From: Elusimicrobiota bacterium
Lineage (GTDB): Bacteria > Elusimicrobiota > Elusimicrobia > Elusimicrobiales > UBA9959
NCBI GenBank assembly: GCA_027340875.1
Contig: DAIENX010000016.1
Coordinates: 1-46,103 of the forward strand
DNA: 46,103 bases
Direction: 5' to 3'
The translations under genes were made by a program, and so were the position numbers. The notes beneath the pieces were generated by a model. The model was not told where the DNA came from, made no database searches, and saw only the letters and a program-made list of their open reading frames with translations. Position 1 is the stretch's first letter; each line of letters starts with the position of its first letter. This document shows, piece by piece, positions 3,796 through 21,788 of the stretch.

Positions 3796-3814
3796 GCGCC
3801 GCGGGCCCGCGCGC

Positions 3815-3829
3815 TGGCAGGGTTGCTGC
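3815..3829 (+). promoter_or_regulatory. Sigma-54-like -24/-12 element TGGCAGGGTTGCTGC
   Basis: GG-N10-GC spacing; intergenic, just upstream of ATG 3875; same motif recurs at 7553, 12362 and 20874. Confidence 0.7.
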
Positions 3830-3874
3830 GCGCTTAATTTCGTATAGAATACCTGAATATAATCGGAGAGTGCT

Positions 3875-5188
3875 ATGCGTATCCAGCGTTATATCCCGAT
3901 CATGCTCCTGCTGTGCGCCGCCGCGCGCGGCCGGGCGGCCGCGGCGCCGGTTTCACCTGACGTTATAACCACTACGCCCGCCTGCGTGGAGTGCCATAAG
4001 AAGGTGGTCTCGTCCAAGTTCACGCACGGTCCGGTCGGAGTGAAAATGTGCAGGGTGTGCCACTCGGACGAGAAACCGGCACAGGACCCCGCGAAGCATC
4101 ATGTCTTCTCGTTCCCGAAGCCGCAGCCGGAACTGTGCCTGGAATGCCACGTGGACGTGCGCGAGAGCCTCAGGTCCGGCAAGATGACGCACGGCGCCAT
4201 CGAGGCCGGCGGCTGCACTTCCTGCCACGATCCGCACGGCTCCGGCCAGAAGTTCTTCCTGCGCGGGGAGAACATGGACGCGCTCTGTTCCAACTGCCAC
4301 GGGAAAAAGACCGGCGGCGCCGTGGTCCACCGGCCGGTGAAGGCCTCGTGCATGCTGTGCCACGAGCCGCACGCGTCCGGCGGCAGCCACCTTCTCAAGA
4401 CCGACACCCCGGAACTCTGCCTGGGCTGCCACCAGCAGGTGAAGACGGAGCTTTCCGGCAAGTACGTCCACGGCCCGGTGCAGACCGGCTGCCAGACCTG
4501 CCATGACCCGCACAGCGCGCCCAAGCCGTACCTGCTGAAGTCCGACGCGAAGAAGGAGCTCTGCCTGGGCTGCCACGCGGACATGGCCAAGGCGCTGAAG
4601 AACGCCAAGCGCCCGCACCCCGCCGTGGAATCGGCCGGCTGCATCGGCTGCCACAGCCCCCACGCGTCGGGGCAGCCGAAGATGCTGCTGAAGCCGATGA
4701 AGGAGCTCTGCCTGGGCTGCCACGCGGACAAGGCCGCGGAGCTGGGCAGCAAGTTCCTGCACGGCCCGGTGCGCCTGAACGAATGCCAGGGCTGCCATGA
4801 CCCGCACGGGGCGGACAACCCCAACATCCTCAAGGAATATTTCCCGGAGGACTTCTACAACTCGTACAAGGAAGGCCTGTACGCCCTGTGCTTCGAATGC
4901 CACGAGAAGAACATCGCCAGCGAACCCAGGACCGCCAAGCTGACCAACTTCCGCAACGGCGACGTGAACCTGCATTACGTCCACGTCCATTCCGAGAAGG
5001 GACGCAGCTGCAAAGCGTGCCACCAGGTGCACGGCGGCCGCCAGGAGAAGCACGTCCGGGAGAGCGTGCCGTTCGGCTCCTGGCCGCTGCCCATCGTGTA
5101 CAGGAAGACCGCCACCGGCGGCAGCTGCAACGTCGGCTGCCATAACCCCAAGTCCTACGACCGCGTGAAAGAGGTGGAGAACAAATGA
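3875..5188 (+). CDS. Exported multiheme cytochrome c (14 CxxCH plus one CX3CH; doubled-CxxCH repeat type)
   Basis: Signal peptide; repeated HGPV...CxxCHxPH...LCxxCH units; terminal CNVGCH. Confidence 0.93.
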   Translation: MRIQRYIPIMLLLCAAARGRAAAAPVSPDVITTTPACVECHKKVVSSKFTHGPVGVKMCRVCHSDEKPAQDPAKHHVFSFPKPQPELCLECHVDVRESLRSGKMTHGAIEAGGCTSCHDPHGSGQKFFLRGENMDALCSNCHGKKTGGAVVHRPVKASCMLCHEPHASGGSHLLKTDTPELCLGCHQQVKTELSGKYVHGPVQTGCQTCHDPHSAPKPYLLKSDAKKELCLGCHADMAKALKNAKRPHPAVESAGCIGCHSPHASGQPKMLLKPMKELCLGCHADKAAELGSKFLHGPVRLNECQGCHDPHGADNPNILKEYFPEDFYNSYKEGLYALCFECHEKNIASEPRTAKLTNFRNGDVNLHYVHVHSEKGRSCKACHQVHGGRQEKHVRESVPFGSWPLPIVYRKTATGGSCNVGCHNPKSYDRVKEVENK

Positions 5189-6153
5189 GATACATCGTAA
5201 GAGCGTTCGTCGTGCTGGCCTTCGGCCTGCCGTTCTGCGCGGGCGTCTCCCGCTGCGAAGCCAACCCGCTGCGGAACCTGGAACTGGGGGCCGCCGCTTT
5301 CCCGTTCTCCCTGCCGGACACGAACGGGAACGCGGTAAGCCTGGACAAGTTCAAGGGGCGGCCCGTGGTGGTCTGTTACTGGCGTGAAGGCCAGTTCTAC
5401 TCCAAAAAGATGCTCGAGGTCATGACGCGCGCGCAGGCCAAGTTCGGCGGCAAGGGCGTGGAGTTCCTCTCCATCACAAGGACCGCGGGCGCCGAAGCCC
5501 CAAAGGTGTCCACGATGCCTTTCCCGGTGCTGCTGGACGACCAGGAGAAGGTCTACGGGGATTACGGCCTGTTCATACTGCCTACCACGTTCGTGCTGGA
5601 CGGCGGGCACCGCCTCAAGGCTTATTTTTCCAGCTACCAGGAGGAGTCCGGACCGGAGCTGGACAAGATACTGTCGGAGATGCTCGGCCTAAAGGCGACG
5701 CCGGCGCCCGCCCCGCGCTACGCGGCGGTGCAGGGCATGGCTGACCCGGAGCTCAACCTCGCCCGCGAGCTGCTGAAGGAGGGCAAGGCTGCCGAGGCCC
5801 TGCCGCTGCTGGAGAAAGGGCTGCGCGGCGCGGCGTCAGGCGACGCCGCGGAGCTGAAGCTGCTGTCCGCCCAGGCGCTGATGCAGCTGTCGCGCCTGGA
5901 GGAGGCCAAAGCGAGGCTGGAGGGCTGCCTGAAGGACGATCCCGCCTCGCACGAGGCGCAGCTGCTGCTGGGCAGGACCCTTTTCCTGATGGGCCGCTAC
6001 GAGCCCGCGGAAGAGGCCCTCAAAAAGTCCATGGGCCTGAACCCGCATTCCGAAAAGGCGCATTATTACCTCGGGGAGCTGTATGAGAAGACAGGCCGCA
6101 AAGATCTGGCGCTGGCCGAATACCGCGCGGCGCTTGAGCGTATATACAGGTAG
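5185..6153 (+). CDS. Exported redoxin/thioredoxin-fold plus TPR protein lacking CxxC
   Basis: AFPFSLPDTNGNAVSLDKFKGRPVVV...FPVLLD...YG...LPTTFVLD redoxin pattern; C-terminal TPRs (AHYYLGELY). Start overlaps the upstream stop (ATGA). Confidence 0.8.
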   Translation: MRYIVRAFVVLAFGLPFCAGVSRCEANPLRNLELGAAAFPFSLPDTNGNAVSLDKFKGRPVVVCYWREGQFYSKKMLEVMTRAQAKFGGKGVEFLSITRTAGAEAPKVSTMPFPVLLDDQEKVYGDYGLFILPTTFVLDGGHRLKAYFSSYQEESGPELDKILSEMLGLKATPAPAPRYAAVQGMADPELNLARELLKEGKAAEALPLLEKGLRGAASGDAAELKLLSAQALMQLSRLEEAKARLEGCLKDDPASHEAQLLLGRTLFLMGRYEPAEEALKKSMGLNPHSEKAHYYLGELYEKTGRKDLALAEYRAALERIYR

Positions 6154-6664
6154 CGCCGCCGCGCTGCTGCTGGCCGGCTGCCTGGCGTCCGTCCGCCTGG
6201 CTTCCGTGCACGCGCCCTACGGGCGGCATAATTGCGAGGCCTGCCACGACGTGGGCGGCACGCTGGCCAGGGGGGTTTCGGCCTCTTCCTATTCGGACCG
6301 CGTGAAGGAAGAGGCCGCCGGCGGGGACTATTCCCTTTCGCCCGGCGAGGAAGTCCCCTCGCTTCTCCGCTACCGGGTGGACAGGCTTTGTTTCCAGTGC
6401 CACCGGGAGCTGGACCCGGCCTCTCCGGGCTACGAGGGGAAATGGCTGCACGGTCCGTTCCAGGCCGGCGTGTGCCTGGCCTGCCATCAACCGCACGAAT
6501 CCGCGAACCCCCGTCTTCTGGTGGCCTATCCGGTGGAGAAGCTCTGTTCCATGTGCCATTCCGGGTTCCACGGCAAGGAGGGGGCCTCCCGTTATCCCGG
6601 GAAGCCATGCCTGGCCTGCCATTCCCCGCATTCCCAGGAGAAAGCCGCCAGGACCCCGGACTGA
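6134..6664 (+). CDS. Pentaheme cytochrome c, probable lipoprotein
   Basis: Five CxxCH motifs; LLLAGC lipobox-like sequence. Start uncertain: TTG 6134 chosen, ORF track starts at 6083. Confidence 0.82.
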   Translation: MSVYTGSAAALLLAGCLASVRLASVHAPYGRHNCEACHDVGGTLARGVSASSYSDRVKEEAAGGDYSLSPGEEVPSLLRYRVDRLCFQCHRELDPASPGYEGKWLHGPFQAGVCLACHQPHESANPRLLVAYPVEKLCSMCHSGFHGKEGASRYPGKPCLACHSPHSQEKAARTPD

Positions 6665-6669
6665 GGGGG

Positions 6670-7434
6670 TTATTTCAGTTTTTTCAGGCTTTCCCGCACC
6701 TGTATGGTGAACGGATGCGCCGGTCCCAGCGCTTTTTCCGCCAGGGCCAGGGCCGTCTTGTACCGCGCGCGGGCCTCGGCCGGCCTGTCCAGGTCGCGGT
6801 AAAGGTCGCCCAGATTGCTCAGCGTGATGGCCATGTTGGGGTTGCCGTGGCCGAAGCTGCCGCCGCAGAGGTCTACGGCCCTCTTGAAAAGAGCCTCGGC
6901 GCGCGCGGGGTCCTTGCGCTGGTGGCAGACCTTCGCCAGGTTGTTCAGCGTGGCGACCACGTCGGAGATGTCGGCTCCGGGGGTCTTGTCGTAATAGGAG
7001 AGGGTGGTCTCGAAGGCTTTCTGGGCCGCCTCCAGCTTGCCTTCTTTCTGGTAAACGGCTCCCAGATTGTTCAGCGCGGTCATGGCCTGGGCCGAGGTCT
7101 CGCCGTAGGATTTCGCCGCCAGGGAGAACACCTCGCCGGCCAGCGGCTCGGCGGCGGAGAAATCGCCGCGGTCATAGTACAGCTTGGCGAGCAGGCCGAC
7201 GTTGCCGGCCAGCCGGATGTCTCCGGACCGGAAGATCTTCCTGGCCAGTTTCAGCGCTTTCCCGGCCTCCTGCACGGCCATCTCTCCCTGTCCATGCTTC
7301 GAATATACCGCGGCTTTATCCATGCTCTCCTGCCAGGCCGGCAGGTCCTTTTCGCTGTTCACGCAGGCGGAAAGCGCCAGGATGATGATAGCCGGGACTA
7401 GAGCGGCGCGGTAGCGGATGTTATAAGAGGGCAT
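6670..7434 (-). CDS. TPR-repeat lipoprotein (kinesin-light-chain-like TPRs)
   Basis: LALSAC lipobox; repeats ALNNLGAVY, TLNNLAKV, TLSNLGDLY; AAGGAG RBS upstream on the minus strand. Confidence 0.85.
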   Translation of the reverse strand: MPSYNIRYRAALVPAIIILALSACVNSEKDLPAWQESMDKAAVYSKHGQGEMAVQEAGKALKLARKIFRSGDIRLAGNVGLLAKLYYDRGDFSAAEPLAGEVFSLAAKSYGETSAQAMTALNNLGAVYQKEGKLEAAQKAFETTLSYYDKTPGADISDVVATLNNLAKVCHQRKDPARAEALFKRAVDLCGGSFGHGNPNMAITLSNLGDLYRDLDRPAEARARYKTALALAEKALGPAHPFTIQVRESLKKLK

Positions 7435-7552
7435 TCGTATCTCCTTAAGAGCTTGTTGCGTAGATCCAGAACCTGCGGCAATTGCGGCTTTTGGGCTGCG
7501 GCTTCGTCGCTTACGGCCCCGGCTTCGAGGCCGCCGATGGCCTGTTATCGCG

Positions 7553-7569
7553 TGGCAGCATTGCTGCCA
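7553..7569. promoter_or_regulatory. Palindromic TGGCAGCATTGCTGCCA, matching the -24/-12-like motif on both strands between divergent genes
   Basis: Reverse complement is TGGCAGCAATGCTGCCA; lies between starts at 7434 (-) and 7589 (+). Confidence 0.65.
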
Positions 7570-7588
7570 TGATAATAAATGACGCGTT

Positions 7589-7963
7589 ATGCTGTCTATA
7601 TTGATCGTGGACGATGAGCCGCTGATAAACTGGTCGCTGGGCCAGGTCTTCGAAGGCGCCGGCTACGCCGTGACCCTGGCCGAAAGCGGCGAGGAGGCCG
7701 AGGCGCTGGCCATGGCCGGCCGTTTCGACGTGGTATTGACGGACGTTAAGATGAAAGGCATGACCGGGTTCGAGCTCCTCCGGCGGCTGAAAGCGGGCCT
7801 TCCGGGGGTCAAGGTGGTCCTGATGACGGCTTTCTCCGGAGAGGCGGAAAAGGACGCCTCCTTACGGGAAGGCGCCGACGATTTCATACGCAAGCCTTTC
7901 AATGTGGCGGAGGTGGTCCAGCGGGTGCGGGCGCTGCTCGCAGGGGCGGAGTGCGCGTTTTAA
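7589..7963 (+). CDS. Single-domain response regulator (receiver)
   Basis: ILIVDDE, DVVLTDVKM, LMTAF and FIRKPF receiver motifs. Confidence 0.9.
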   Translation: MLSILIVDDEPLINWSLGQVFEGAGYAVTLAESGEEAEALAMAGRFDVVLTDVKMKGMTGFELLRRLKAGLPGVKVVLMTAFSGEAEKDASLREGADDFIRKPFNVAEVVQRVRALLAGAECAF

Positions 7964-8043
7964 CGCGATTTGCGTCAAATCGCGCATTGTTTGCTATGAT
8001 ATTACGGAAATTCCGTGCATCTGTGATCTGGAGCCGACCTTCC

Positions 8044-9033
8044 ATGCGCCATAGTATCAGAAAGAACCCGTGCGGCCCCCGCCGCCTGCTCCGCGCCGCT
8101 GCTGTCCTCTGCCCGCTGCTCTGTCTTGCCGCCCTTTCCTGGGCCGGGAAGAAGGACAACGCGCCCGACCCTTTTTACGCCAGGCACACGGCCGAGGCCG
8201 GAAAGTTCGCCGGTAAGGGGCACGTCCATACTCCGGTGGCGAAGAACGTCTGCAGCCCGTGCCACGCGTCGGCGGAAGACCCGAAGAAGCTCTCCGCCGA
8301 GGGCAATGAGCTGTGCTTCTCCTGCCACTCCGCGCTGAAGAAGGACCTTAAGAAGAAGAAGGTCCACGAGCCCTTCTCCGGCATGCCCTGCTCCACCTGC
8401 CACGACCCGCATTCCTCCGGAGAGGCCGCCAACCTCGTTTCCCCGGTCAGGGAGCTCTGCTCCATGTGCCATGACGTCTCAGCTACCGGTACGGCGGCCG
8501 CGCACGGCGGCGTCAGGACGATGAAGAAGGACTGCACGCTGTGCCATTCCCCGCACGCCTCCGACAACGGCAAGCTGCTGCTGGAGGGAAAAACGCATCC
8601 CTCTTTCGAAGCCGGCTCCTGCGGTACCTGCCACGCCGAGCCGGGCCCGGACGGCGAGGCGAAGCTTTCCGGTTCCGCGGGCAGCGCGTGCCTTATGTGC
8701 CACGGGGACCTGCAGGACGCCATGAAGGAGAAGTCGGCGCACCGGCCTTTCCTGTCCGGCGCCTGCGAGAAATGCCATTTTCCCCATGTAGGCAAGTTCC
8801 GGGCCTTCACGCTCTCGGAGCCAGAGCTGATGTGCCGCTCCTGCCACGCGGGCATCCAGGATAACGGCCACCCGGTGGTCGGACACCTTTCCCACGATCC
8901 CGGCAAAAAGAATCCCCTGGACAAGTCACGGCCGTTCGACTGCGTTTCCTGCCACAAGCCGCACGCTTCCGCTTTCGGAAAGCTGCTGGTGAAAGAGCCG
9001 GGGGAACTGTGCCTGGCCTGCCATGAGCAGTGA
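8044..9033 (+). CDS. Exported multiheme cytochrome c (11 CxxCH; doubled-CxxCH type)
   Basis: Eleven CxxCH motifs, signal peptide ending ALSWA. ATG 8044 preferred over GTG 7951. Confidence 0.92.
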   Translation: MRHSIRKNPCGPRRLLRAAAVLCPLLCLAALSWAGKKDNAPDPFYARHTAEAGKFAGKGHVHTPVAKNVCSPCHASAEDPKKLSAEGNELCFSCHSALKKDLKKKKVHEPFSGMPCSTCHDPHSSGEAANLVSPVRELCSMCHDVSATGTAAAHGGVRTMKKDCTLCHSPHASDNGKLLLEGKTHPSFEAGSCGTCHAEPGPDGEAKLSGSAGSACLMCHGDLQDAMKEKSAHRPFLSGACEKCHFPHVGKFRAFTLSEPELMCRSCHAGIQDNGHPVVGHLSHDPGKKNPLDKSRPFDCVSCHKPHASAFGKLLVKEPGELCLACHEQ

Positions 9034-9117
9034 GGAACTCCGGGGGGCGGGGAAAAGGCGCGAGCAATAGAGCGCTGATTTGCGGGTACAGCGGGGCTTA
9101 TCCTTAAAGGAGTTTTT

Positions 9118-10164
9118 ATGCGGTCCATCGTGCTGTCTTTGGCGGTTATGGGCGGTCTCTTCGCGGTGTACGGGACGCCGGCGGCGGCCGCCGCCGAAGC
9201 GAAAGAAATAGTCTTCCCGGCTCCGCCCGACGTGCCGCGCATAAAATATCTCAGAAGCCTCGCGCGGGAATCCGATATTTCCGGCCGGAAATCCGGCATG
9301 TGGGGCAAGTTCCTCAACGCCATCACCGGCAAGGAGGCGTCCAACATCTTCATGACCAGGCCGTACGACGTCTGCGCCGACACCGGCAGCGTCTACGTCT
9401 CGGACAGCGAGGGCGGGGCCGTGGTGGCGTTCAACCTGCAGAGCGGGAAAGCCTACAAGATCGGCGGCACGCTGGAGGGGAGGCTGGTCTCCCCGATGGG
9501 AGTGGCGCTGGATTCCTCGGGCAGGCTTTTCGTGGCGGATTCGGCCGGGGACACGATAAAGGTCTTTTCAGTGAACGGAGATTTTCTTTTTCGCTTCGGC
9601 CTTTCCGGCTCCGGGCCCGGGCAGTTGAAAAAGCCGCTGGACGTGACCTATGACCGCGGGCGCGACAGGATACTGGTGGCGGACAGCGGCAACGCGCGGA
9701 TACAGATTTTCGACACCGCCGGAAAGTTCATAGCCCAGATAGGGAGCCGCGGGACCGCCGACGGCCAGTTCTCCATTCCGGTCGGGGTGGCCGTGGCCCC
9801 GGACGGGCGGGTGATCGTCTCTGATACCATGCTCTGCCGGGTGCAGGAATTCTCACCTGACGGGAAGTTCCTCCTGAAGTTCGGCGAGCAGGGGGACAGC
9901 CTGGGCTACTTCGCCCGGCCCAAGGGAGTGGCCACGGACAGCGACGGGAACATCTACGTGGCGGACGCGCTTTTCAGCGCGATACAGATCTTCGATCCGA
10001 AGGGCGAGCTGCTGATGCATTTCGGGGCCGAGGGCGGCGAGCCCGGCGCTTTCCAGCTGCCCATCGGCGTCTACGTGGACGACCAGGACAAGGTCTATAT
10101 CGCCGATTCTTTCAACCAGCGCGTCCAGGTCTTCCAGTACCTGAAGCAGCCTAAAGCGCCTTAG
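9118..10164 (+). CDS. Exported NHL-repeat six-bladed beta-propeller (copy 1)
   Basis: Signal peptide, FPAPPDVPRI, repeated PxGVAxDxxGxIYVAD...RVQVF; AAAGGAG RBS. Confidence 0.92.
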   Translation: MRSIVLSLAVMGGLFAVYGTPAAAAAEAKEIVFPAPPDVPRIKYLRSLARESDISGRKSGMWGKFLNAITGKEASNIFMTRPYDVCADTGSVYVSDSEGGAVVAFNLQSGKAYKIGGTLEGRLVSPMGVALDSSGRLFVADSAGDTIKVFSVNGDFLFRFGLSGSGPGQLKKPLDVTYDRGRDRILVADSGNARIQIFDTAGKFIAQIGSRGTADGQFSIPVGVAVAPDGRVIVSDTMLCRVQEFSPDGKFLLKFGEQGDSLGYFARPKGVATDSDGNIYVADALFSAIQIFDPKGELLMHFGAEGGEPGAFQLPIGVYVDDQDKVYIADSFNQRVQVFQYLKQPKAP

Positions 10165-10274
10165 GACCGGCCGGGGCGCCGGAATATGACGCCGATCGCG
10201 GAGCCTGCGGTCCCTTGACAACGGCGCGGCCGCGGGGGTATACTTCGCTAAGAACGCGCCGTACCGGAGGAGCG

Positions 10275-10838
10275 GTGAAAACCAAGGTCATACTTCTTTT
10301 CATGTCGGTGACGCTGCTGCTGGCTTATTTCGCGCATAGACGCGGGAAGCCGGTGACGGTCCCTTCCGACCTGCGCGATTCCGTGATAACCGTTCATGGC
10401 TCTTCCGGGGTTCCCGGTTTGGCGCCGCAGTGCCTGTCCGGCGGCCTTCCGCACAGGGCCGCGGCCGCCGCCGCCTGGGACGGCGGCGGAGCGCTCGCCG
10501 CCGGCGTTCAGTCTTCCCCGATGGCGCAGGGAGTATATTCCTGCCTGTCCTGCCATGACGGCACGGTGGCGCCGGCGGATAAGTCGTATTCGGCCGCGCT
10601 CGGCTTTTCCGGCGGCGCGCCGGAGGGCGGCTCCGCCGGAAATCACCCGGTGGGCGTGGATTACGGGGAGGCCATGCGCGCCCGCCCAGGCGAGTACAAT
10701 GACCCGCATTCCAACCCGGATATCAGGCTTTCCGGGAACAAGGTCACGTGTCTTTCCTGCCATGCCAGCGAACTGACGGCCGGCCTGCAAATGCCCGGCG
10801 GCCAGACCGCTCTTTGTCTCTCCTGTCACAGGCTTTGA
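10275..10838 (+). CDS. Triheme OmcE-like cytochrome c with degenerate first heme site
   Basis: CLSCHDG...NHPVGVDY...VTCLSCH...LCLSCH spacing as in OmcE; first site reads CLSGGLPH. GTG start after GGAGGAG. Confidence 0.8.
   Translation: MKTKVILLFMSVTLLLAYFAHRRGKPVTVPSDLRDSVITVHGSSGVPGLAPQCLSGGLPHRAAAAAAWDGGGALAAGVQSSPMAQGVYSCLSCHDGTVAPADKSYSAALGFSGGAPEGGSAGNHPVGVDYGEAMRARPGEYNDPHSNPDIRLSGNKVTCLSCHASELTAGLQMPGGQTALCLSCHRL
10730..10838 (+). repeat. Direct repeat copy 1 (109 bp; 3' end of the triheme cytochrome gene)
   Basis: Aligns ungapped with 18158-18266, with 11 mismatches and a 59-bp identical core. Confidence 0.92.
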
Positions 10839-11186
10839 GCGCGCTTACCGCCTGCTCCGGCTTTTTGCCGGACCGGCCGGAAGATCGCGTGCCTTTTACC
10901 GGGCGTTCACTGATCGATGGATACGCTGAGGGCTTGTTTTCTGGCGTCCGCTTCATTGCCTGTTCCGCGGATCGCGGAGTCCGCCCGCGGCGGACGCCGC
11001 CCCTTGCCCGCATACCGCGTGTATGCCCGCTCATCGCGGCTTGTTCCCGGACAGCGCCGCTGAGCGCCACCCACAGCCGTCTCCGGCCTATGGCCGTGCC
11101 AGGAGCTATGCCCGTCGAACAGCCAAATCCGGGCCGCCATAAGTCATATTGCTTATGCGCGGGCCGGTTAATGAGGAAATACTGTT

Positions 11187-12248
11187 ATGCGTAATCCACC
11201 CGCCAGACCCGTCCAGCGTAGTTTATGGAGCGCGTTCGCCGCCAAATGCGCCATTGCCCTTTTCGCCGGCAGTTTGGCGGGGCCGATCGCCGCGCATGGC
11301 CAGGACATCGTCTTTCCGCCGGCTCCGGATGCTCCGCGCGTGCGCTATCTGTACAGCCTCAGCGGGCCGCAGGACATCAAGCCGAAAGTGTCCGGGTTCA
11401 GGGCTTTTCTGCTGAAGCTTGCCGGTAAAGGCCCGCGGTCCGGCCAGGCCATGGTGCGGCCTTACGGCGTGTACGCCGCCTCCGGCCGCGTCTTTGTAGC
11501 CGATACCGGCGGCATGGCCGTGGCGGTGTTCGACCGCGGCGCAAAACGGCTGACGAGGATCGGCGGTTCGCGGGAGGGCAGCCTTATCAATCCGATCGAT
11601 GTTGCAGCCGATGAGGCCGGCAATATCTACGTTACGGATTCCGGGCTGAATCTGGTCAAGGTTTACGGGCCGGACGGGAACTTCCTGAGGCAACTGGGCA
11701 CGGCTTCGGGACTGTCGCATCCCACGGGCATCGTTTACGACGCCGGCCGCAAACGGCTGATCGTCGCCGATACGGGGAACTCCCGCCTGGTCCTGTTCGA
11801 CGCGGGCGGGAAAATGTCGGGGACTATAGGCCGCCGGGGAACGGAAAAGGGGGACATGTCGGTGCCGATAAATCTGGCGCTGGACAGGGAAGGCGATATC
11901 TATGTCGTGGAGAACATGCTCAGCCGCGTCCAGATATATTCTCCGGAGGGGGTTTTTCTTTCGCAGTTCGGCAAAAACGGCGACCTGCCGGGCTATTTCG
12001 CCAGGCCAAGAGGCATAGCCCTTGACAGCGACGGCAATATTTATGTCGTTGACGCCTTGATGAATATGGTGCAGATTTTCGACCGGGAAGGGAAACTGCT
12101 GCTGTTCTTCGGAGGCGGCGGCGCGGAGCCGGGCACGTTCCAGCTGCCTGCCGGAATTTTCATAGATCCGGAGGACCGTATTTATGTGGTGGATTCCAAC
12201 AATAGGCGTGTCCAGGTTTTCCAGTATCTGAAGCCGCCTCCGAAATAG
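11187..12248 (+). CDS. Exported NHL-repeat beta-propeller (copy 2)
   Basis: IVFPPAPDAPRV, NHL repeats, ends RVQVFQYLKPPPK. Confidence 0.92.
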   Translation: MRNPPARPVQRSLWSAFAAKCAIALFAGSLAGPIAAHGQDIVFPPAPDAPRVRYLYSLSGPQDIKPKVSGFRAFLLKLAGKGPRSGQAMVRPYGVYAASGRVFVADTGGMAVAVFDRGAKRLTRIGGSREGSLINPIDVAADEAGNIYVTDSGLNLVKVYGPDGNFLRQLGTASGLSHPTGIVYDAGRKRLIVADTGNSRLVLFDAGGKMSGTIGRRGTEKGDMSVPINLALDREGDIYVVENMLSRVQIYSPEGVFLSQFGKNGDLPGYFARPRGIALDSDGNIYVVDALMNMVQIFDREGKLLLFFGGGGAEPGTFQLPAGIFIDPEDRIYVVDSNNRRVQVFQYLKPPPK

Positions 12249-12270
12249 GGCTTGCGGCAGAAAACCGTTT

Positions 12271-12286
12271 GTGCGGGATTTCCCCC
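12271..12286. promoter_or_regulatory. Candidate upstream activator site GTGCGGGATTTCCCCC
   Basis: 14/16 identical to GTGGGGGTTTTCCCCC at 20750; about 90 bp upstream of the -24/-12-like motif. Confidence 0.4.
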
Positions 12287-12361
12287 GGTCTGCGTGAAAT
12301 CACCCGGATTTGCGGCGGCCGGAACAGCGGTTTCCATTGGGAAAGGCGCGTTGCGGGGTGT

Positions 12362-12376
12362 TGGCAGAAACGCTGC
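12362..12376 (+). promoter_or_regulatory. Sigma-54-like -24/-12 element TGGCAGAAACGCTGC
   Basis: GG-N10-GC, upstream of the OmcE-like gene at 12466. Confidence 0.7.
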
Positions 12377-12465
12377 ACTAAGGATATATGGCGGGGCTTG
12401 ACATGTCAAGTGCCGCGGCCGCGGCGGGGAAAATGCGCGGGGGACAGAGGAAACGGGGAGGCGTT

Positions 12466-13101
12466 ATGAAGAAACATGAATCCGTGTGGGCGGGCATGCT
12501 TATAGCGTGTGCCCTTGTTCTGCCGGCGCGGCCGGCGCGCGCAGTGGTTGCGGGTTCCCTGCACGACTTCACCGCGGCCCCGTATTCGCTGCTCACCACC
12601 TGTTCGGGCTGCCACGTGCCGCACCAGACCAAGACGAATGTCCCGTTATGGGCGCACGCGACATCCACGTATACCTACACATTGTATAACCAGAACGCGG
12701 CGTATGTCGTGAAAAGCCCCGCCTTCACTTACGATGCGTCCCCGAGCGCCCTCACGGGCAGCAAATCGCTGTTATGCCTGGGCTGCCATGACGGTACGGT
12801 GGCGGTATCCGGCACGAACTATATCACGCAGGCCTCGGCCTCCTGGATACTTTATGACGCCGGAGCGAAGGTGGGCGGCCAGGCGAGCGCCAATCCGTCG
12901 GCCGGCCTGAAAGGCAGCCATCCTATCGGTGTCGTCTACCAGGCGGTGGCGGGGAAATATAATGATATCTCGCTCGACCCCGATGTGAAGCTGGACAGCA
13001 CCAAGGTCCAATGCACTTCGTGCCACAACCCGCACAACCTGTTCCCCAAGATGCTGGTGAAATCAGGCGCCGCGCTCTGCACCACCTGCCATATAAAGTA
13101 A
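12466..13101 (+). CDS. Tetraheme OmcE-family extracellular cytochrome c (copy 1)
   Basis: Signal peptide, then GSLHDF...CSGCHVPH...VPLW...YTLY...SLLCLGCHDG...HPIG...VQCTSCHNPH...LCTTCHIK. ATG follows GGGGAGG. Confidence 0.88.
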   Translation: MKKHESVWAGMLIACALVLPARPARAVVAGSLHDFTAAPYSLLTTCSGCHVPHQTKTNVPLWAHATSTYTYTLYNQNAAYVVKSPAFTYDASPSALTGSKSLLCLGCHDGTVAVSGTNYITQASASWILYDAGAKVGGQASANPSAGLKGSHPIGVVYQAVAGKYNDISLDPDVKLDSTKVQCTSCHNPHNLFPKMLVKSGAALCTTCHIK

Positions 13102-13173
13102 CGCGCGGCAGGAACGGCCCGCCGGGGTTTTTAAGCACGGGGGCCGCTGTTTCCGGGAATCCAGGATGATAAA

Positions 13174-14226
13174 ATGCGCTGGAAAACGGCCGGCATCAGT
13201 CTGAAAACGCTGAAGTTTCCAGCCATGCTGCTGGCTATAGCGTTCACGGCAGCCGCCGCGGCGTCCGTTGGCGGGCGTGTCTGGCCCCCGGCCCCGGATA
13301 AGGCGCGGATCCGGCTGATAGCCGTGCTTCCCGAAGCGGCGCAGGAGGACAATGCCGGGCCGCTTTTTCTGAAAATTTTACGCCGCCTGGCCGGCCTGAA
13401 GCCGGGCAAGCGCCGCGGTCCGGGGTTTGTGCGCCCCACAGGCGTGGCCGTGCGCGGCCGCGTCGTCTATGCCGCAGACCCGGGAGCCGGAGGCGTTGTC
13501 ATCTATGACACCGAAAAACGTTCCTGCAGCCTGATTCCGGCCAACCGCCGCAACCGCCTGCCTTCTCCGGTAGGAGTGGCGGCGGCTTCCGACGGGAGCA
13601 TATTCGTCAGCGATTCCCGGCTGCGGAAAGTTCTTCTGTTCGACGCCGGAGGCCGCGCCAGCGGCGAACTTAAACCCCCGCCGGGCGCTTTCATGCGGCC
13701 GGGTGGTCTGGCTCTGGACGAGGCCCGCGGCCGGCTGTGGGTGGCCGACGCTGCGGCGCATATGATCTACGCCTATTCTCTCGGCGGAGAATACCTGTTT
13801 TCCATCGGCGCGCGGGGCCAGGCGCCCGGCAGTTTCAATTATCCCACCTATCTCTGGGCCGATACGCGCACAGGAGCCCTGTGGGTCTGCGACTCCGGCA
13901 ACTTCCGCGTCCAGTCCCTTGACGCCGCCGGGCGGCCGACAGGGGCTCTGGGGCGCAACGGCAACTGCCCCGGTTATCTGGCGCGGCCGCGCGGCGTGGC
14001 CGCAGATTCCGAAGGCCACGTCTATGTGGCGGACGGCGCGATGTCCGCCGTGCAGATATTTGACGAGAGCGGGCGGTTATTGCTGTATTTCGGAGAGCGG
14101 GGCGGCCAACCGGGCGAGTTCTATCTGCCGGGGGGGGTGTTCATTGACGGCGACGACAGGATATATGTCGCCGATACCTATAACGCCAGGGTGCAGGTAT
14201 TCCAGTACCTGAAGGACGCGCCATGA
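13174..14226 (+). CDS. Exported NHL-repeat beta-propeller (copy 3)
   Basis: VWPPAPDKARI, NHL repeats, RVQVFQYLK; stop overlaps the next start. Start may be the downstream ATG (MLLAIAF). Confidence 0.92.
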   Translation: MRWKTAGISLKTLKFPAMLLAIAFTAAAAASVGGRVWPPAPDKARIRLIAVLPEAAQEDNAGPLFLKILRRLAGLKPGKRRGPGFVRPTGVAVRGRVVYAADPGAGGVVIYDTEKRSCSLIPANRRNRLPSPVGVAAASDGSIFVSDSRLRKVLLFDAGGRASGELKPPPGAFMRPGGLALDEARGRLWVADAAAHMIYAYSLGGEYLFSIGARGQAPGSFNYPTYLWADTRTGALWVCDSGNFRVQSLDAAGRPTGALGRNGNCPGYLARPRGVAADSEGHVYVADGAMSAVQIFDESGRLLLYFGERGGQPGEFYLPGGVFIDGDDRIYVADTYNARVQVFQYLKDAP

Positions 14227-16103
14227 AGAAAATGTCCGCCGCTGCCGCCTCCGCCGCGCCGGCCGCCATTTCGCTGCTTCTGGCCGGCGCGCTGTTCCCG
14301 CCTCCGGCGCGCGCGCTTGTCGTCGCCGGTTCTAAACACGATCTCTCTCCCGGTTCGGGCACGTCCCAGACCTGCATATTCTGCCACACGGCCCACCAGG
14401 CCAAGCGGAACGTCCCGCTGTGGAATCATTACGTGACCACCCAGACCTTCACCTTCTACTCCTCCAACCATCTCAACACCTACCTCGCCATCGCCGCCCC
14501 GACCATGGCCGACCTCCCCGGAACTCGCACGGAGCTGTGCCTGTCCTGCCATGACGGGATGACGGCCCTCGGAGGCCTCTACAATCTGGGCGGGGAAACC
14601 ATTTCAAAACCCCCGGCCGTTACGGGCCCCGCCAACCTGGGCACTAACCTCGCCGACGACCACCCGGTGCTTTACGACGTCAAGCCCGGCGCGGGTCCGC
14701 CCGGCTCGCCCGGCACCGACCCCGAGATACAACTGCCGCTTGCCGGCGACGCGGTCAAGGTCTACGGCGCCGCCAACAGGGTGGAGTGCACTTCCTGCCA
14801 TGACCCGCATGATAACCAGTTCGGCCATTTCCTGGTCAAATCCAACGCCAACGCGGCCATCTGCACGACATGTCACATAAAATCCGGCTTTTCCGCCTCC
14901 GCGCACGCGACTTCCGTCGTGGCCTATACTCCGCCAGGCGAAGCGGCGACCACCGTCGGCGAGTGGTCATGCCGGAACTGCCACCGTTCCCACGGGGCGT
15001 CCGCGACGCAGGCCTACATCCTGCGCGGAGCCGAGGAGGCCACCTGCTACCAGTGCCACGGCAATCCTCCCCTGGCCGGCGCCAGGAATATGCAGGCGCT
15101 CTTTCTCAAAGCCTCCAGACACCCGACGGAAACGGTCTCGGCCAGGCATAAGGACCCGGAGACGGACGGCTCCAATTTCACGTATTCGCCGCTCAACAAC
15201 AGGCATGCGGAATGCCAGGACTGCCATAATCCGCACCAGGCCAAGACCGGCACCCATACCGCGCCCGCCAATAACATCTCGAACGTACTGCTGGGCCAGT
15301 GGGGCGTGGAACCCTCTGACGGCGCGATCTGGACCGCGGCCATCGCCTATGTCCGCCAGGTCTTCGCTAACACGACAGGCTACAAGGAGTACCAACTCTG
15401 TCTCAAGTGCCACTCCTACTACGCCTTCGGCGCCATACCCGCTCCCAATATCACGGACCAGACCGTCGAGTTCAATATCAATAACAAGGCCGCTCATCCT
15501 GTCCGCGCGGGTCTCAGCGGCCAGACCGGGAGCGTTGCTCCGAAGGCTTTGACGGCCGGCCAGATGTCGGCGCCGTGGACGACCGCCGGCACCCAGACGA
15601 TGTACTGCTCGGACTGCCACGATTCTGACGTCGCTGCCGATCCCAAGGGTCCGCATGGCTCGGCCGGAACGTGGCTCAAGAAAGGCCCCAACGTCTACTG
15701 GCCCAGGGACGCCGCTCTGGCGCTGTATACGCTGGGCGCCAACAACACTACCGACGCGCATCTGGCGGGACTTTTCTGCCGCAACTGCCATCCTTTGAGA
15801 AGCGCGACAGCAAATACCTGGTACAACAACGCCCACCAGGAGCACAGTGGGGCGCAGGTAAGCAATGTCCCCTGCGTGGCCTGCCATGTGGTGGTCCCGC
15901 ACGGCTCGCGCCGCGGGCGGCTCATCGGCTACGCGGCTGAAAGCGCCCCCTACAACAACAACGGCGCGGGAACCCTTGAAAAACTCGTGCTGAGCGGCTT
16001 TAAGAAAGCGACGACCCCCGTAGGATACGTCACGGGAAACTGTTACTCCACCGTCGCGGGATGCAGTTCGGTGCATACGAACGCGGGTGGCTATGATCCC
16101 TGA
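14223..16103 (+). CDS. 11-heme cytochrome c with N-terminal OmcE-like tetraheme domain (copy 1)
   Basis: GSKHDLS...CIFCHTAH...VPLWN...CLSCHDG...NLGTNLADDHPV...VECTSCHDPHDN...CTTCH, then seven more CxxCH; ends CYSTVAGCSSVH...GGYDP. Confidence 0.92.
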   Translation: MKKMSAAAASAAPAAISLLLAGALFPPPARALVVAGSKHDLSPGSGTSQTCIFCHTAHQAKRNVPLWNHYVTTQTFTFYSSNHLNTYLAIAAPTMADLPGTRTELCLSCHDGMTALGGLYNLGGETISKPPAVTGPANLGTNLADDHPVLYDVKPGAGPPGSPGTDPEIQLPLAGDAVKVYGAANRVECTSCHDPHDNQFGHFLVKSNANAAICTTCHIKSGFSASAHATSVVAYTPPGEAATTVGEWSCRNCHRSHGASATQAYILRGAEEATCYQCHGNPPLAGARNMQALFLKASRHPTETVSARHKDPETDGSNFTYSPLNNRHAECQDCHNPHQAKTGTHTAPANNISNVLLGQWGVEPSDGAIWTAAIAYVRQVFANTTGYKEYQLCLKCHSYYAFGAIPAPNITDQTVEFNINNKAAHPVRAGLSGQTGSVAPKALTAGQMSAPWTTAGTQTMYCSDCHDSDVAADPKGPHGSAGTWLKKGPNVYWPRDAALALYTLGANNTTDAHLAGLFCRNCHPLRSATANTWYNNAHQEHSGAQVSNVPCVACHVVVPHGSRRGRLIGYAAESAPYNNNGAGTLEKLVLSGFKKATTPVGYVTGNCYSTVAGCSSVHTNAGGYDP

Positions 16104-16170
16104 ATCCCGCCGTTGCGCCGGGAGAAGGTGATGCCGGCCGGAATGGTTCCCGGGTTGGGAGGGCGAACTC

Positions 16171-17844
16171 ATGCGCCGCCATACCAGCTGTCTGCTCTGC
16201 GTTTTCTGGCTGCTGAAGGCGGCCGTACCCGCAGCGCGAGCGCAATCCCCGTACGCAGCGTCCGGCCGGCTCGGCTGGTCCTATGACGACGTCATGGTCC
16301 GGACCCCGGAGGGAAGCAGGCGCATCGCGATAGCCGGCCAGAAGTACAATCTGAACCTCCGGGGACCGTTCGGCCTGCCGGGGATCGGCGAAGGCTTCGC
16401 CACGCTCGACTATTCTGAAGGGAGGAACCTCTCGCAGGTCGTCGCAGGCGGGGGCGCCGCCCAGAAGCTGGTCGGGTATTCTATCGGCGGCAGCTTCCTC
16501 CCGCCGGAGGCGCGCGAATTCGTGTCGCTTGGCGGGACGTTCGCGCGGAATTCCGACCGCACGGCCTGGGGCGCGGGTCCGCCCAGGAATCTCACGGACA
16601 CGAGCTATGACGGCAATATCGGCCTGACGCTGCCCGGGCTGCCGAGCCTGCAGCTGAGCTGTCAGAACCTTCAGCGCCGCGACAGCGCCGAAGGCGCGCC
16701 GGCCAGCCAGGATATCATAACGTGGCGGGAGCGCGCGTCGTACGCCAAGGGCCCTCTGCGCTGGAATTACTTCCGCACCCGGCAGGATACAAGAGCCCTC
16801 GGTCCGGGAGTCCGGAGTTCCGGCAACGACGACCTTTCCACCGACCTGTCCCTGGACTATCCCGCTCTGCGCGTGCGCGGCCTGCGAAGCCTGGCCCTGC
16901 GCGCCTCGTTTACCCGCCAGGCGTTCGACAGCGCCGGGAACCGGAGGACGCAGCAGTCTATCGGCGAGAGCGGCTATCTCACCACGGCGCTTTCGCGCAG
17001 CGGACGGTTCGAGTCATATCTCGGCTACGGCGAGAGCTTTTCCCGCATCGCCGGGGAAAAAAGCCTGCGCTCCAGCCATAACCTGAGCCTGGTCAGCCAG
17101 TCGGTTTCGTCGCGCTGGAATGTGAACAACCAGGCCAAGTACTCCGCGGCCTCCGGCCCCGGCGTAAGCGGCCAGAGTCTCGACGAGAATTTCAACGCGG
17201 AGTCGCCGAGGTTCGGCAAATACTTCGTCTACTATCTGCAGAGCGCCGGCAGCGTCCGCTGGGGGGGATCCGGCGGAGGGACGGCCGGAGAATCGGCGTT
17301 GCAAAAACTCTCCTTCTATCCCCGCCCGGAACTGGATGTCTACTGCCAGCAGAGCTACTCGGGTTCGGGCGCCAGGCTTGGCCGGGCGCGCGAGGACAGC
17401 CTCGGCTGGGCCGCGGGCGTCAATTGGCGGCCCGGCAGCCTTCTGGAAACCGCCGCCGACTACAGTCGGCAACGCGGCCGCGGTCTTCTTACTGACCAGC
17501 TGACGTTAAGTTATAAAGCCTTTCCGCTGGACAGTATGACCATAGGATGCGGTTATTCCCTGCAGCGTACCCGGACTTACCGGCCGCTGCCGATGGAATC
17601 CGTGTACGGCACATTCAAAGCCGACCTTGGATATCGCCCGGCCGAGGGCCTCTCGCTGGACGCCAGCCTCCTGCGGCAACGGTTTGCCGGGGAGAATCCG
17701 GGCCGGCCAGGCGCCATGGATTATTCCCTGTCGGCGCTATACCAGCTGGGCGCAGTCGAAATGAGCGTTAAATACGAAAACCGCGCGATTTCAACGGTCA
17801 ACGAATACAGCCGTCTGGCAGCGGAGTTCAGCCGGAATTTTTAG
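16171..17844 (+). CDS. Putative outer-membrane beta-barrel protein (copy 1)
   Basis: Signal peptide, Ser/Gly/Tyr-rich alternating amphipathic strands, terminal Phe (LAAEFSRNF); follows a multiheme gene. Confidence 0.72.
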   Translation: MRRHTSCLLCVFWLLKAAVPAARAQSPYAASGRLGWSYDDVMVRTPEGSRRIAIAGQKYNLNLRGPFGLPGIGEGFATLDYSEGRNLSQVVAGGGAAQKLVGYSIGGSFLPPEAREFVSLGGTFARNSDRTAWGAGPPRNLTDTSYDGNIGLTLPGLPSLQLSCQNLQRRDSAEGAPASQDIITWRERASYAKGPLRWNYFRTRQDTRALGPGVRSSGNDDLSTDLSLDYPALRVRGLRSLALRASFTRQAFDSAGNRRTQQSIGESGYLTTALSRSGRFESYLGYGESFSRIAGEKSLRSSHNLSLVSQSVSSRWNVNNQAKYSAASGPGVSGQSLDENFNAESPRFGKYFVYYLQSAGSVRWGGSGGGTAGESALQKLSFYPRPELDVYCQQSYSGSGARLGRAREDSLGWAAGVNWRPGSLLETAADYSRQRGRGLLTDQLTLSYKAFPLDSMTIGCGYSLQRTRTYRPLPMESVYGTFKADLGYRPAEGLSLDASLLRQRFAGENPGRPGAMDYSLSALYQLGAVEMSVKYENRAISTVNEYSRLAAEFSRNF

Positions 17845-18157
17845 CCCCCATGTTCTATAAGCGCGCCGGCGCCGATTTGTGTTTTACCGCCTTCGGCGCG
17901 CTGTCCGGGTATGCCTGAAAAACCGGCGCCCCCTCTTCCAAGGCCATAAGCCTTTAACGAGGTGAAAACGCAAATATTAAAATTAGTATATTCATCATTT
18001 TACCGCCGGCTATTCTTTCGGCGATCCGTTCCCCTGAACAGTTCCCGTACCGCAGCTCTTCCTGAATTTGCCCGCGGTTCTATTACAACTTCACGGTCAG
18101 GCTTAAAATATGGATCTTGCCCGGGTCGCCTATCTTGCTGGCGAAAAGGCGTAGTTG

Positions 18158-18266
18158 TTCCGGCGACAAGGTGACCTGCCTTTCCTGCCATGCCAGCGAA
18201 CTGACGGCCGGCCTGCAAATGCCCGGCGGCCAGACCGCCCTCTGCCTCGCCTGCCACAGGCTGTGA
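18158..18266 (+). pseudogene. Orphan 3' remnant of the triheme OmcE-like gene (direct repeat copy 2)
   Basis: Encodes SGDKVTCLSCHASELTAGLQMPGGQTALCLACHRL-stop; no in-frame ATG back to the TGA at 18063; upstream DNA is unrelated to the intact copy. Confidence 0.85.
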
Positions 18267-18299
18267 GCTCGCCCCGCCGCCGGCCGCCCCTCCGGGCGG

Positions 18300-19577: not shown

Positions 19578-19598
19578 GGTTTGGCCGGAGGAACGCGC

Positions 19599-20423
19599 TC
19601 AGCTGAAATTGTGGAAGCCGCGGAAAAAGAGATTTATGACGGTCATGGAGAGCAGGGCCAGGGCGAACCCCAGGATGGACAGGACGGCGAACTTCTTGCC
19701 GTACCAGCCCGCCGCCTCCCTCAGCCCGAGGCCGGCGCCGTACACCAGCCAGATGAGCGCGGTGCCGATGAGCTTCGGGTCCACGTAGGAATGCCCCGGG
19801 AACGCCCTGGCCAGCCACGCCATGCCGACCGCTATCGCCACGGTCAGGAAGAAAAAGCCCGTCGCCGTCGAGATGAAGCTCAGCCTTTCGAGTACCTCCA
19901 GGCTGGGCAGGCGCTCGTAGACGACGCCGAGCCGGCTGGACTTTATCTCGTGATAGAGCATCAGGTAGAGGAAGCCGTAGACGGCCGCGATCGCGAGCGC
20001 CGCGTAGCCGAGCAGCGCGCCGGAAACGTGTATCCCGAGAAGCCGGCTCTTCAGGACTGGATCCACGTCGGTCCTGTTCACGATCAGCAGCGAGGAGGCG
20101 AGCTGGAAGAGCAGCGGGAGACCGAGGATGAAACAGCCGGTGCCCTTCACCTTGGTCCAGTACTCCAGCAGGAAGTACGCGAGCGAAATGCTGAAGGCGA
20201 TGACCGAGAGTATCTCCGGAAGGCTGGTGATGGGCGGGTGTCCCAGAAAGACCGTCCGGGCGAGCAGATAAGTGAGATGGACGGAAAGCGCGGCGATAAG
20301 CAGCGGCGTCTTGGCGGTCTTCGCGACGGGGCTCGCGCTGAAGAACGCCCTGGCGTACGCCGCTACTGTTGCCAGGTAAAGGAGCGGCAGCAGAGCGTTC
20401 AACGCGGTTATTGCATGGTTCAT
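19599..20423 (-). CDS. Cytochrome c assembly family membrane protein, HemX/CcsA-like
   Basis: Multi-TM protein; IHV...LLGY, RLPSLEVLERL, DPK motifs; lacks the WGxxWxWD motif; directly upstream of hemA. ATG 20423 preferred over 20495. Confidence 0.82.
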   Translation of the reverse strand: MNHAITALNALLPLLYLATVAAYARAFFSASPVAKTAKTPLLIAALSVHLTYLLARTVFLGHPPITSLPEILSVIAFSISLAYFLLEYWTKVKGTGCFILGLPLLFQLASSLLIVNRTDVDPVLKSRLLGIHVSGALLGYAALAIAAVYGFLYLMLYHEIKSSRLGVVYERLPSLEVLERLSFISTATGFFFLTVAIAVGMAWLARAFPGHSYVDPKLIGTALIWLVYGAGLGLREAAGWYGKKFAVLSILGFALALLSMTVINLFFRGFHNFS

Positions 20424-20749
20424 TGCCGTGTGCCGTAACGAAAAAACATACTGACCGGCCGGTTCAAGTTTATGTAAATCGTGTGTCGAAGTCAAGGGAT
20501 AGGCCTGCCCCTGGATACGGGACCGGATGGGGGCTGCGCCGCGCGGCAGGGCGCTGTATCGGGAAGGACGGGGGGTCTTGGTCCTGGCGTCTCTGCCGGG
20601 AAATTTCCGCCTCCCTGCTATGGTATTTTCTGGAGAGTGTTTACATATTATAACGGGAAAGCCTCTTTATTAATGATTTATCTATATTATATATCAATGA
20701 AGGGGGTTGCGGGAAGCCAATTGTCATAATTTGGTCAAAAAACGCAGGG

Positions 20750-20765
20750 GTGGGGGTTTTCCCCC
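20750..20765. promoter_or_regulatory. Candidate upstream activator site GTGGGGGTTTTCCCCC
   Basis: Near-palindrome about 125 bp upstream of the -24/-12-like motif; similar to 12271-12286. Confidence 0.4.
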
Positions 20766-20873
20766 ATGGGCAGAGCCCCCGGTTTTCATCAAAGCGCGGC
20801 ATTCAGCTGGAAATAGGCTTGATGGACTTCAGATCTGCCGTTTCCCTATGAGAAATGCCGTCTTTGGCGGCTA

Positions 20874-20888
20874 TGGCAGGAATGCTGC
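20874..20888 (+). promoter_or_regulatory. Sigma-54-like -24/-12 element TGGCAGGAATGCTGC
   Basis: GG-N10-GC, upstream of the OmcE-like gene at 20969. Confidence 0.7.
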
Positions 20889-20968
20889 ACCAGTATTTGT
20901 GCAGTACCAGGCGGGTGTCTGGATTTTACAGGAAGAAAACAGCGAAAACGAAAATTATGGAGGAGATA

Positions 20969-21628: not shown

Positions 21629-21663
21629 AGGGTATAGCGGGTCCCCTGAGGGCCTGACAGTAC

Positions 21664-21700
21664 ATAAGACGCCGGGCGCCACACACGCCCGGCGGCTTAT
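21664..21700 (+). terminator. Stem-loop after OmcE-like copy 2 (attenuator or mRNA stabiliser, weak U tract)
   Basis: ATAAGaCGCCGGGCG-ccacaca-CGCCCGGCGgCTTAT inverted repeat. Confidence 0.55.
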
Positions 21701-21788
21701 TGAAGGGGGCGATGTTTACGCGGGAGGACGAAAAGGTATAATTTATCCGGGTTTTTTCCGGCCGGATGTCCGGAGCCCGCTGATCAGG

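Follow-up and report, generated by a model that had tools for sequence, protein, structure and literature searches.

What reads a set of promoters whose -24/-12 elements all depart in the same way from the sigma-54 consensus? The question is raised by the motif TGGCAG-N4-GCTGC on a 46,103-nt contig of an Elusimicrobiota bacterium (contig C86; the entire contig is referred to here as the window). Sigma-54, or RpoN, is usually a single, highly conserved factor, and its promoter consensus hardly varies across bacteria. A first-pass annotation had proposed that the motif marks promoters of the island's own sigma-54 paralog. Our analysis points the same way: the five copies of the motif, at four loci, are probably enhancer-dependent -24/-12 promoters of a self-contained cassette and are read by a compact sigma-54-like factor, here called sigma-A, whose gene opens the window.

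Exact matches to the motif were found at every position first annotated (3815, 7553 on both strands, 12362 and 20874). The five matches compare with a mean of 0.05 expected from 100 dinucleotide-preserving shuffles, none of which reached five, in agreement with the early estimate of well under one chance match. A scan of the whole assembly (2,805,542 bases in 112 contigs, 63.6% G+C, 92% complete) returned six exact copies, five of them in the window; the sixth (C42:18697-18711) falls within an open frame of 479 codons on the opposite strand. With one of six copies in a coding frame, the motif is not randomly frequent in the coding DNA of this genome. It is rare and, within its genome, private to this contig. 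No excess over chance was seen when one or two mismatches were allowed (42 matches vs 29.9 ± 5.5 expected), and the canonical form TGGCAC-N5-TTGC occurs once in the 2.8-Mb genome.

A repeat without function, produced by chance or by codon usage, is extremely improbable as an explanation. Its one support comes from other genomes of the genus: at least one copy was present in 41 of 43 genomes among the matches listed, mostly as 0-7 scattered copies per genome, which is above a reversed-pattern control and suggests a coding-sequence background. One genome (G043) held 17 copies, of which 11 were identical and on different contigs, suggesting a repeated element. The window copies, in contrast, exceed expectation by far, all lie within the approximately 9% of the first 35 kb that is non-coding (counted from open reading frames, ORFs), and have unrelated flanks.

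The window was also matched by Logan contigs from three DNA runs of two studies. Runs X1 and X5 gave long pieces with 0-1 differences and run X7 gave short pieces; no variant was seen at the four promoter sites among the matches listed. X1 and X5 may be the source of this DNA. The runs provide no independent footprint. No RNA run was listed for positions 3600-13500 of the window.

The four loci lie in intergenic gaps (3796-3874; 7435-7588, which is divergent; 12249-12465; 20496-20956), and each plus-strand copy is directed toward the operon behind it, so that units 1-4 each stand behind one copy (Table 1). The annotated rule that the motif is always intergenic held after two gene starts were corrected. 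The longest ORFs open at 12388 and 20855, the latter placing the site at 20874 within a frame. Signal peptides open at ATG 12466 (MKKHESVW...) and at 20957 or 20969 (MKKAKIAG...), which places P3 and P4 upstream of the likely gene starts. The likely start codon is separated from the final C of the motif by 46 nt for P1, 22 nt for P2, about 90 nt for P3, about 70-81 nt for P4 and 121 nt for P2'. The claim of a position upstream of a start codon therefore stands, with a range of 22 to about 121 nt and a gene-directed orientation. A Shine-Dalgarno sequence, GGAGAG, precedes ATG 3875 of unit 1.

Table 1. Promoter sites, regulatory genes and transcription units of the window.
Feature	Position	Strand	Description
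P1	3815..3829	+	TGGCAGGGTTGCTGC; 20 nt 3' of activator stop codon; predicted +1 near 3841
P2	7553..7567	+	TGGCAGCATTGCTGC; part of 17-bp palindrome 7553-7569; predicted +1 near 7579
P2'	7555..7569	-	TGGCAGCAATGCTGC; mirror copy, faces TPR gene; predicted +1 near 7543
P3	12362..12376	+	TGGCAGAAACGCTGC; predicted +1 near 12388
P4	20874..20888	+	TGGCAGGAATGCTGC; predicted +1 near 20900
Sigma-A, compact sigma-54-like factor	3..953	+	C-terminal 316 aa; Pfam Sigma54_DBD; cut by contig end
Sensor histidine kinase	955..2412	+	HAMP-HisKA-HATPase (Pfam)
NtrC-type enhancer-binding protein	2416..3795	+	REC, AAA+ sigma-54 interaction domain, HTH_8 (Pfam)
TTGCGG	7482, 12252, 12310, 12351, 20707	+	Ahead of three promoters; three within 100 nt before P3
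Unit 1	3875..6153	+	Multihaem cytochrome (437 aa), AhpC/TSA-TPR protein (322 aa)
TPR protein (254 aa)	6670..7434	-	Divergent from unit 2
Unit 2	7589..12248	+	Receiver-only response regulator, multihaem cytochrome (360 aa), NHL propeller, small cytochrome (207 aa), NHL propeller
Unit 3	12466..17844	+	Small cytochrome, NHL propeller, 626-aa multihaem cytochrome, 557-aa secreted protein without Pfam family
Unit 4	20957..30023	+	Small cytochrome, NHL propeller, 635-aa cytochrome, ResB, CcsA-type assembly protein, B12-radical SAM enzyme, 567-aa protein

All five copies have the GG-N10-GC spacing of sigma-54 promoters, as had been annotated. Like the canonical RpoN promoters of E. coli, Klebsiella and Aquifex, they have GG and GC doublets 10 nt apart, a TGGCA core at -24 and a TGC core at -12. 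In 5/5 copies they depart from the extended consensus TGGCACG-N4-TTGCW at -21 (G for C), -16 (always G) and -15 (C for T). The consistent difference from the canonical promoter claimed in the first-pass annotation was thus found at these three positions, whereas the doublets and the distance between them follow the canonical pattern. C at -15 is also known from individual characterised promoters, that of Klebsiella nifH among them; one changed base is nothing out of the ordinary, but its consistency over a regulon is. The base at -11 was G, C, C, A and A across the five copies and the spacer varied (GGTT, CATT/CAAT, AAAC, GAAT). Beyond the motif the flanks are unrelated. Downstream of every copy, at about -8 to +3, the sequence is A/T-rich.

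The motif contains the dyad GCAG-N5-CTGC, and the site at 7553 is a perfect palindrome of 17 bp which, standing in the divergent gap, offers the full motif toward each gene. The motif could accordingly be the operator of a dimeric regulator, for example the HTH_8 domain of the activator, with transcription starting from another promoter. We consider this quite unlikely. The dyad is real, and a minus-strand sigma-70-like pair (TAGACA-18-TATCAT, 7598..7569) directed at the TPR gene ends exactly at the start of the palindromic 15-mer, so that promoters of two classes may overlap ahead of this gene. However, TGG is present at the 5' end of 5/5 copies and its mirror CCA in the palindrome only, the orientation always follows the gene, and at none of the four heads did a consensus scan detect a plus-strand pair of sigma-70-like hexamers. 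Activator sites of the NtrC-type family are normally 70 nt or more upstream, whereas these sites lie 22-90 nt before the start codon, and a partial GCA/TGC dyad is already present in canonical sigma-54 promoters. The alternative offered by the first-pass annotation thus kept its dyad and was weakened on these other points. Overlapping sigma-70 promoters were also sought by eye: TTGCTG-16-TAGAAT is possible at P1, and the A/T-rich hexamers at P2-P4 lie only 4-10 nt past the motif, which is too close for such an arrangement. Rfam gave no family match in the window.

The full-length sigma-A protein was recovered from a protein collection (P0001). It is 401 aa as called and about 366 aa from the likely start MSHIRNT; the end of contig C65 encodes its N-terminal part. 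Pfam Sigma54_DBD (PF04552) matched at 33.9 bits (cut-off 22.8), and TIGR02395 at 41 bits against a cut-off of 277, in the DNA-binding part only; the paralog encoded on contig C9 scored 57-58 bits with TIGR02395. Pfam and NCBIfam recognise only the sigma-54 DNA-binding domain in sigma-A, and region I, the activator-interacting domain (AID, PF00309), gave no Pfam match at E <= 1. At E <= 1e-3 the family comprises 614 cluster representatives, of which 107 remain at E <= 1e-30, the 150 best listed being mostly 340-390 aa long; one member, P0002 (Logan source, 14-kb contig), is 64% identical to sigma-A over 97% of the query. The family profile matched the sigma-54 DNA-binding region at 1e-17 to 2e-25. 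Sigma54_DBD was matched in 46/46 members sampled, and the arginine aligned with E. coli R383 was invariant in 46 sequences. The RpoN box of sigma-A, SRRSVNDYR, keeps RR..V..YR; its counterpart in the aligned chains of E. coli and Aquifex is ARRTVAKYR.

In the same 46/46 members neither the core-binding domain (CBD, PF04963) nor the AID was detected by Pfam, and the N-terminal 170 aa of sigma-A folded alone (pLDDT 72.9) found no sigma-54 match (best Z 5.3, unrelated chains). Both results would suit a transcription factor that has the sigma-54 DNA-binding module alone and acts on polymerase carrying another sigma factor, a reading that we regard as very unlikely. An AF2 model built from 46 sequences reached pLDDT 83.5, and the first 30 rows returned by Foldseek were all sigma-54 chains (best E 2e-8). 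By VIA, residues 45-393 of the model were placed on residues 11-467 of E. coli sigma-54 (Z 13.6, root-mean-square deviation 6.3, 224 residues aligned), and a conserved N-terminal helix (L..R.KL) of the predicted model aligned structurally from E. coli residue 11 onward. The match thus extends past the DNA-binding domain. The predicted fold of sigma-A thus matches sigma-54 chains along its length. The gene is also always tied to an AAA+ activator, and region I of sigma-54 is the one target known for such activators. No sigma-54 with a CBD that could serve these activators was found in the 41 genomes searched, which included all 25 genus genomes of that draw. On this view sigma-A would bind core polymerase.

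In the window's own genome (G000) there were two Sigma54_DBD matches, one on the window and one on C9. Sigma54_CBD and the AID gave no match, nor did TIGR02395 at its cut-off. Canonical RpoN is not detectable in this genome. Two full-scoring activators (about 220 bits each) were found, together with two further matches of about 30 bits. Each full-scoring activator gene comes after a sigma-like gene and a kinase gene, forming one cassette on the window and one on C9. The C9 cassette has its own promoter, TGGCAAGATCGTTGC, at G000:C9:36132 (L029 6133). The ORF behind it encodes a secreted protein of more than 895 aa with near-identical repeats and runs off the contig.

Paralogs across the genus were sorted into groups A, B and C by similarity to the window protein and the C9 protein, and three promoter dialects emerged: TGGCAG-N4-GCTGC for A, TGGCAAAGTCGTTGC for B and TGGCAY-N4-ATTGC for C. 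At 15 of 17 group B loci TGGCAA-N4-(G/A)TTGC was found 3' of the activator gene, the other two loci being too short to hold the site; its distance from the start of the sigma match was 3.6-3.9 kb in 13 loci, 5.0 kb in L041 and 9.8 kb in L035. Among the 22 group C loci fetched, 15 carried TGGCAY-N4-ATTGC, in most cases with TCT after it, some 100 nt ahead of their own sigma gene, four carried a one-base variant of the -12 part, and the three least similar had no site. Three genomes with a group C factor held 10, 8 and 7 C-type sites, and G000, where no group C copy was found, held none. G023, an assembly listed with 7% contamination, had four C-type sites (on C11, C52 and C174) and no group C factor that we could find.

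Group A sigma genes were found at E <= 1e-60 in two of 43 genus genomes, G000 and G023, and clustered intergenic A-type sites occurred in these two genomes only. Six A-type matches with A/T-containing spacers were examined, and none was near a homologue of the window cytochromes. Orthologue searches extended this picture: a metagenome contig scan with an alignment of P0001, P0002 and P0005 gave no independent orthologue, a search of the genome collection gave only the G023 copy, and a search of 401 phylum genomes with P0005 gave three loci, none of them A-type. Each group has its own recognition-helix residues (A NSGVLNR, B NPATVSR, C DASVLNR) and its own RpoN-box residues, the latter being ND, NL and AQ beside a -21 base of G, A and T in the three groups. 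Judged from sequence, paralog group and dialect occur together.

The sites could still be true -24/-12 promoters that are read by the C9 paralog, or by both factors, the dialect then being drift without specificity. In its favour, the RR..V..YR core of the RpoN box and the R383-aligned arginine are present in the two paralogs, and the two dialects agree in their GG/GC doublets and in the distance between these. At locus L081, from another family, a -24 element TGGCAG occurs next to a factor whose RpoN box is different. This explanation is nevertheless unlikely. The B-type promoter is almost invariant over 15 loci and differs from the A-type at -21 and -15, the recognition-helix residues differ between the groups, and clustered A-type sites were seen only alongside sigma-A. 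The assignment of the window sites to paralog A rather than B is thus a prediction from linkage, dialect difference and a single co-occurrence. A residue-to-base code between the RpoN box and the -21 base was considered and set aside, since it rests on three groups and L081 contradicts it. A-like sites were also noted in connection with group B in G024, where four identical 15-mers, spaced 156-441 bp apart on the minus strand, stand downstream of a group B promoter within repeats homologous to those behind the C9 promoter.

The proposal that sigma-A reads these promoters therefore draws on the privacy of the motif, its co-occurrence with sigma-A and the distinct dialects of the two other groups. 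As we envisage it, the kinase would phosphorylate the NtrC-type activator, whose AAA+ ring would remodel RNA polymerase carrying sigma-A. The holoenzyme would be held closed on the sites through the RpoN-box domain of the factor at the -24 GG and its helix-turn-helix (HTH) at the -12 GC, and opening would lead to a transcription start about 12 nt past the last C of the motif. The outcome would be joint expression of four operons, which encode multihaem cytochromes, NHL propellers, porin-like proteins and cytochrome c maturation functions, and perhaps of the divergent TPR gene too. The -21 G, -16 G and -15 C would form a dialect that separates this regulon from the C9 cassette. Both the start sites and the dependence on the activator are predictions.

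Several observations weigh against this proposal. The dyad and its perfect palindromic form, the undetected CBD, the N-terminal half that finds no sigma-54 fold when modelled alone, and the L081 site have been given above. In addition, the G023 island is 99.99% identical to the G000 island over 24.6 kb; G023 is the same strain, and the co-occurrence of dialect A and its paralog, which the first-pass annotation had suggested as a check, was indeed found but counts as one observation, not two. From the predicted +1, the P2 leader would extend only about 10 nt before ATG 7589 and the transcript would be nearly leaderless. No clear enhancer site was found, and no exact 9-12-mer was common to three upstream regions. 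Finally, the sigma-contact loop of the activator (residues around 215-230) reads GAFTDA, while GAFTGA was found in 15/15 group B and 18/19 group C activators of the genus. The GAFTGA loop has been described as essential, with F and T the most critical residues (PMC3162934). Given that description, the GAFTDA activator may be impaired rather than co-adapted, although F and T are kept in it.

The activator is otherwise complete in its domain scores (Sigma54_activat 220.7, REC 86.4 and HTH_8 57 bits). In the four upstream regions, 74 8-mers recurred with at most one mismatch, compared with 17.5 in mononucleotide shuffles, a weak control. TTGCGG occurred five times in about 1.2 kb of upstream DNA, against a genome background of 0.6 per kb (both strands). 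This hexamer, which was picked after looking, is a possible candidate for the activator site.

We also examined the region ahead of sigma-A itself. No intact A-type site was found ahead of the sigma-A operon in L027 of G023. The stretch directly before the likely sigma-A ATG (L027 15180-15222, G023:C154) contains TTGGCAGGGGTTGCGGC, which has GG-N8-GC spacing and is two bases short, as well as TTGGCATAATAACACG, a C-type -24 half without a -12 half. Both could be remnants of promoters for autoregulation. In G000 the corresponding DNA is at the end of contig C65.

The cassette resembles canonical RpoN systems in having its sites just upstream of operons and a two-component kinase and AAA+ activator close by. 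It differs in the length of its factor (about 366-401 aa), which Pfam and TIGR02395 match in the DNA-binding region only, and in the GAFTDA loop, which is unlike that of canonical NtrC-family activators. In groups A, B and C alike, the recognition-helix and RpoN-box residues are unlike those of E. coli and Aquifex. Several sigma-54 paralogs per genome, with promoter sets that differ by few bases, likewise occur in Rhodobacter sphaeroides (RpoN1/RpoN2) and Bradyrhizobium japonicum. These paralog-specific promoters are described as differing at one position, -11 in R. sphaeroides and -12 in B. japonicum (PMC3162934). Those paralogs are full-length RpoN proteins, whereas the factors described here are compact, no canonical RpoN was found beside them, three positions distinguish the dialects, and every factor has a kinase, an activator and promoters of its own physically linked to it. 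The same source reports sigma-54 and its activators to be absent from Elusimicrobium minutum (PMC3162934). Among titles and abstract openings on sigma-54/RpoN in Elusimicrobia/Elusimicrobiota and on promoter specificity of sigma-54 paralogs, we found no paper on compact factors.

A wider interpretation is more tentative, and we give it somewhat less than an even chance. In it, a genus without canonical sigma-54 runs up to three compact, mutually orthogonal systems, each a portable block of factor, kinase, activator and private -24/-12 dialect. The block in the window would be an accessory island, present in 2/43 genus genomes, which brings a complete set of multihaem-cytochrome/porin operons together with an insulated transcription system, and GAFTDA and the promoter changes would be co-adaptations, not defects. 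If this were true, enhancer-dependent transcription could be multiplied and insulated within one cell, and promoter-factor-activator triples that are orthogonal and tightly switched off and on would be ready-made for synthetic biology. It would also define a minimal sigma-54, because these proteins have no core-binding domain recognisable at the sequence level. For the organism, the arrangement points to coordinated, signal-dependent control of what appears to be an extracellular electron-transfer apparatus.

The extent of unit 4 was inferred from tight gene spacing. Its first gene and that of unit 3, both small cytochromes, encode proteins that are 48% identical, and stretches of the two units (12.4-17.8 and 20.9-30.0 kb) share 76-85% nucleotide identity at a constant offset of about 8.6 kb. 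On sequence grounds units 3 and 4 are diverged duplicates, unit 4 being the paralogue of unit 3; in their promoter regions only the 15-mer was kept. The secreted proteins at 16171-17844 (557 aa) and 28320-30023 (567 aa) are 34% identical, belong to no Pfam family and are each encoded last in their unit. These proteins of about 560 aa may serve the cytochromes as porin partners in the outer membrane.

The window also contains a direct repeat of 115 nt, whose copies at 10730-10844 and 18158-18272 are 90% identical. The repeat codes for the C-terminus of the 207-aa cytochrome (10215-10838) with its paired CXXCH, and the second copy may thus belong to a small cytochrome gene that was not called, or to a remnant of one, with its end near 18275. 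Sigma-70-like sites are present at 17954 and 18082 ahead of this candidate. At 30154-31554 lies a gene for a clostripain-family peptidase, of which an 86% identical paralogue (L027 13519-14982) stands directly upstream of the sigma-A gene in G023, so that peptidase copies lie on both sides of the island. The source habitats of this DNA are mine-drainage and sediment metagenomes.

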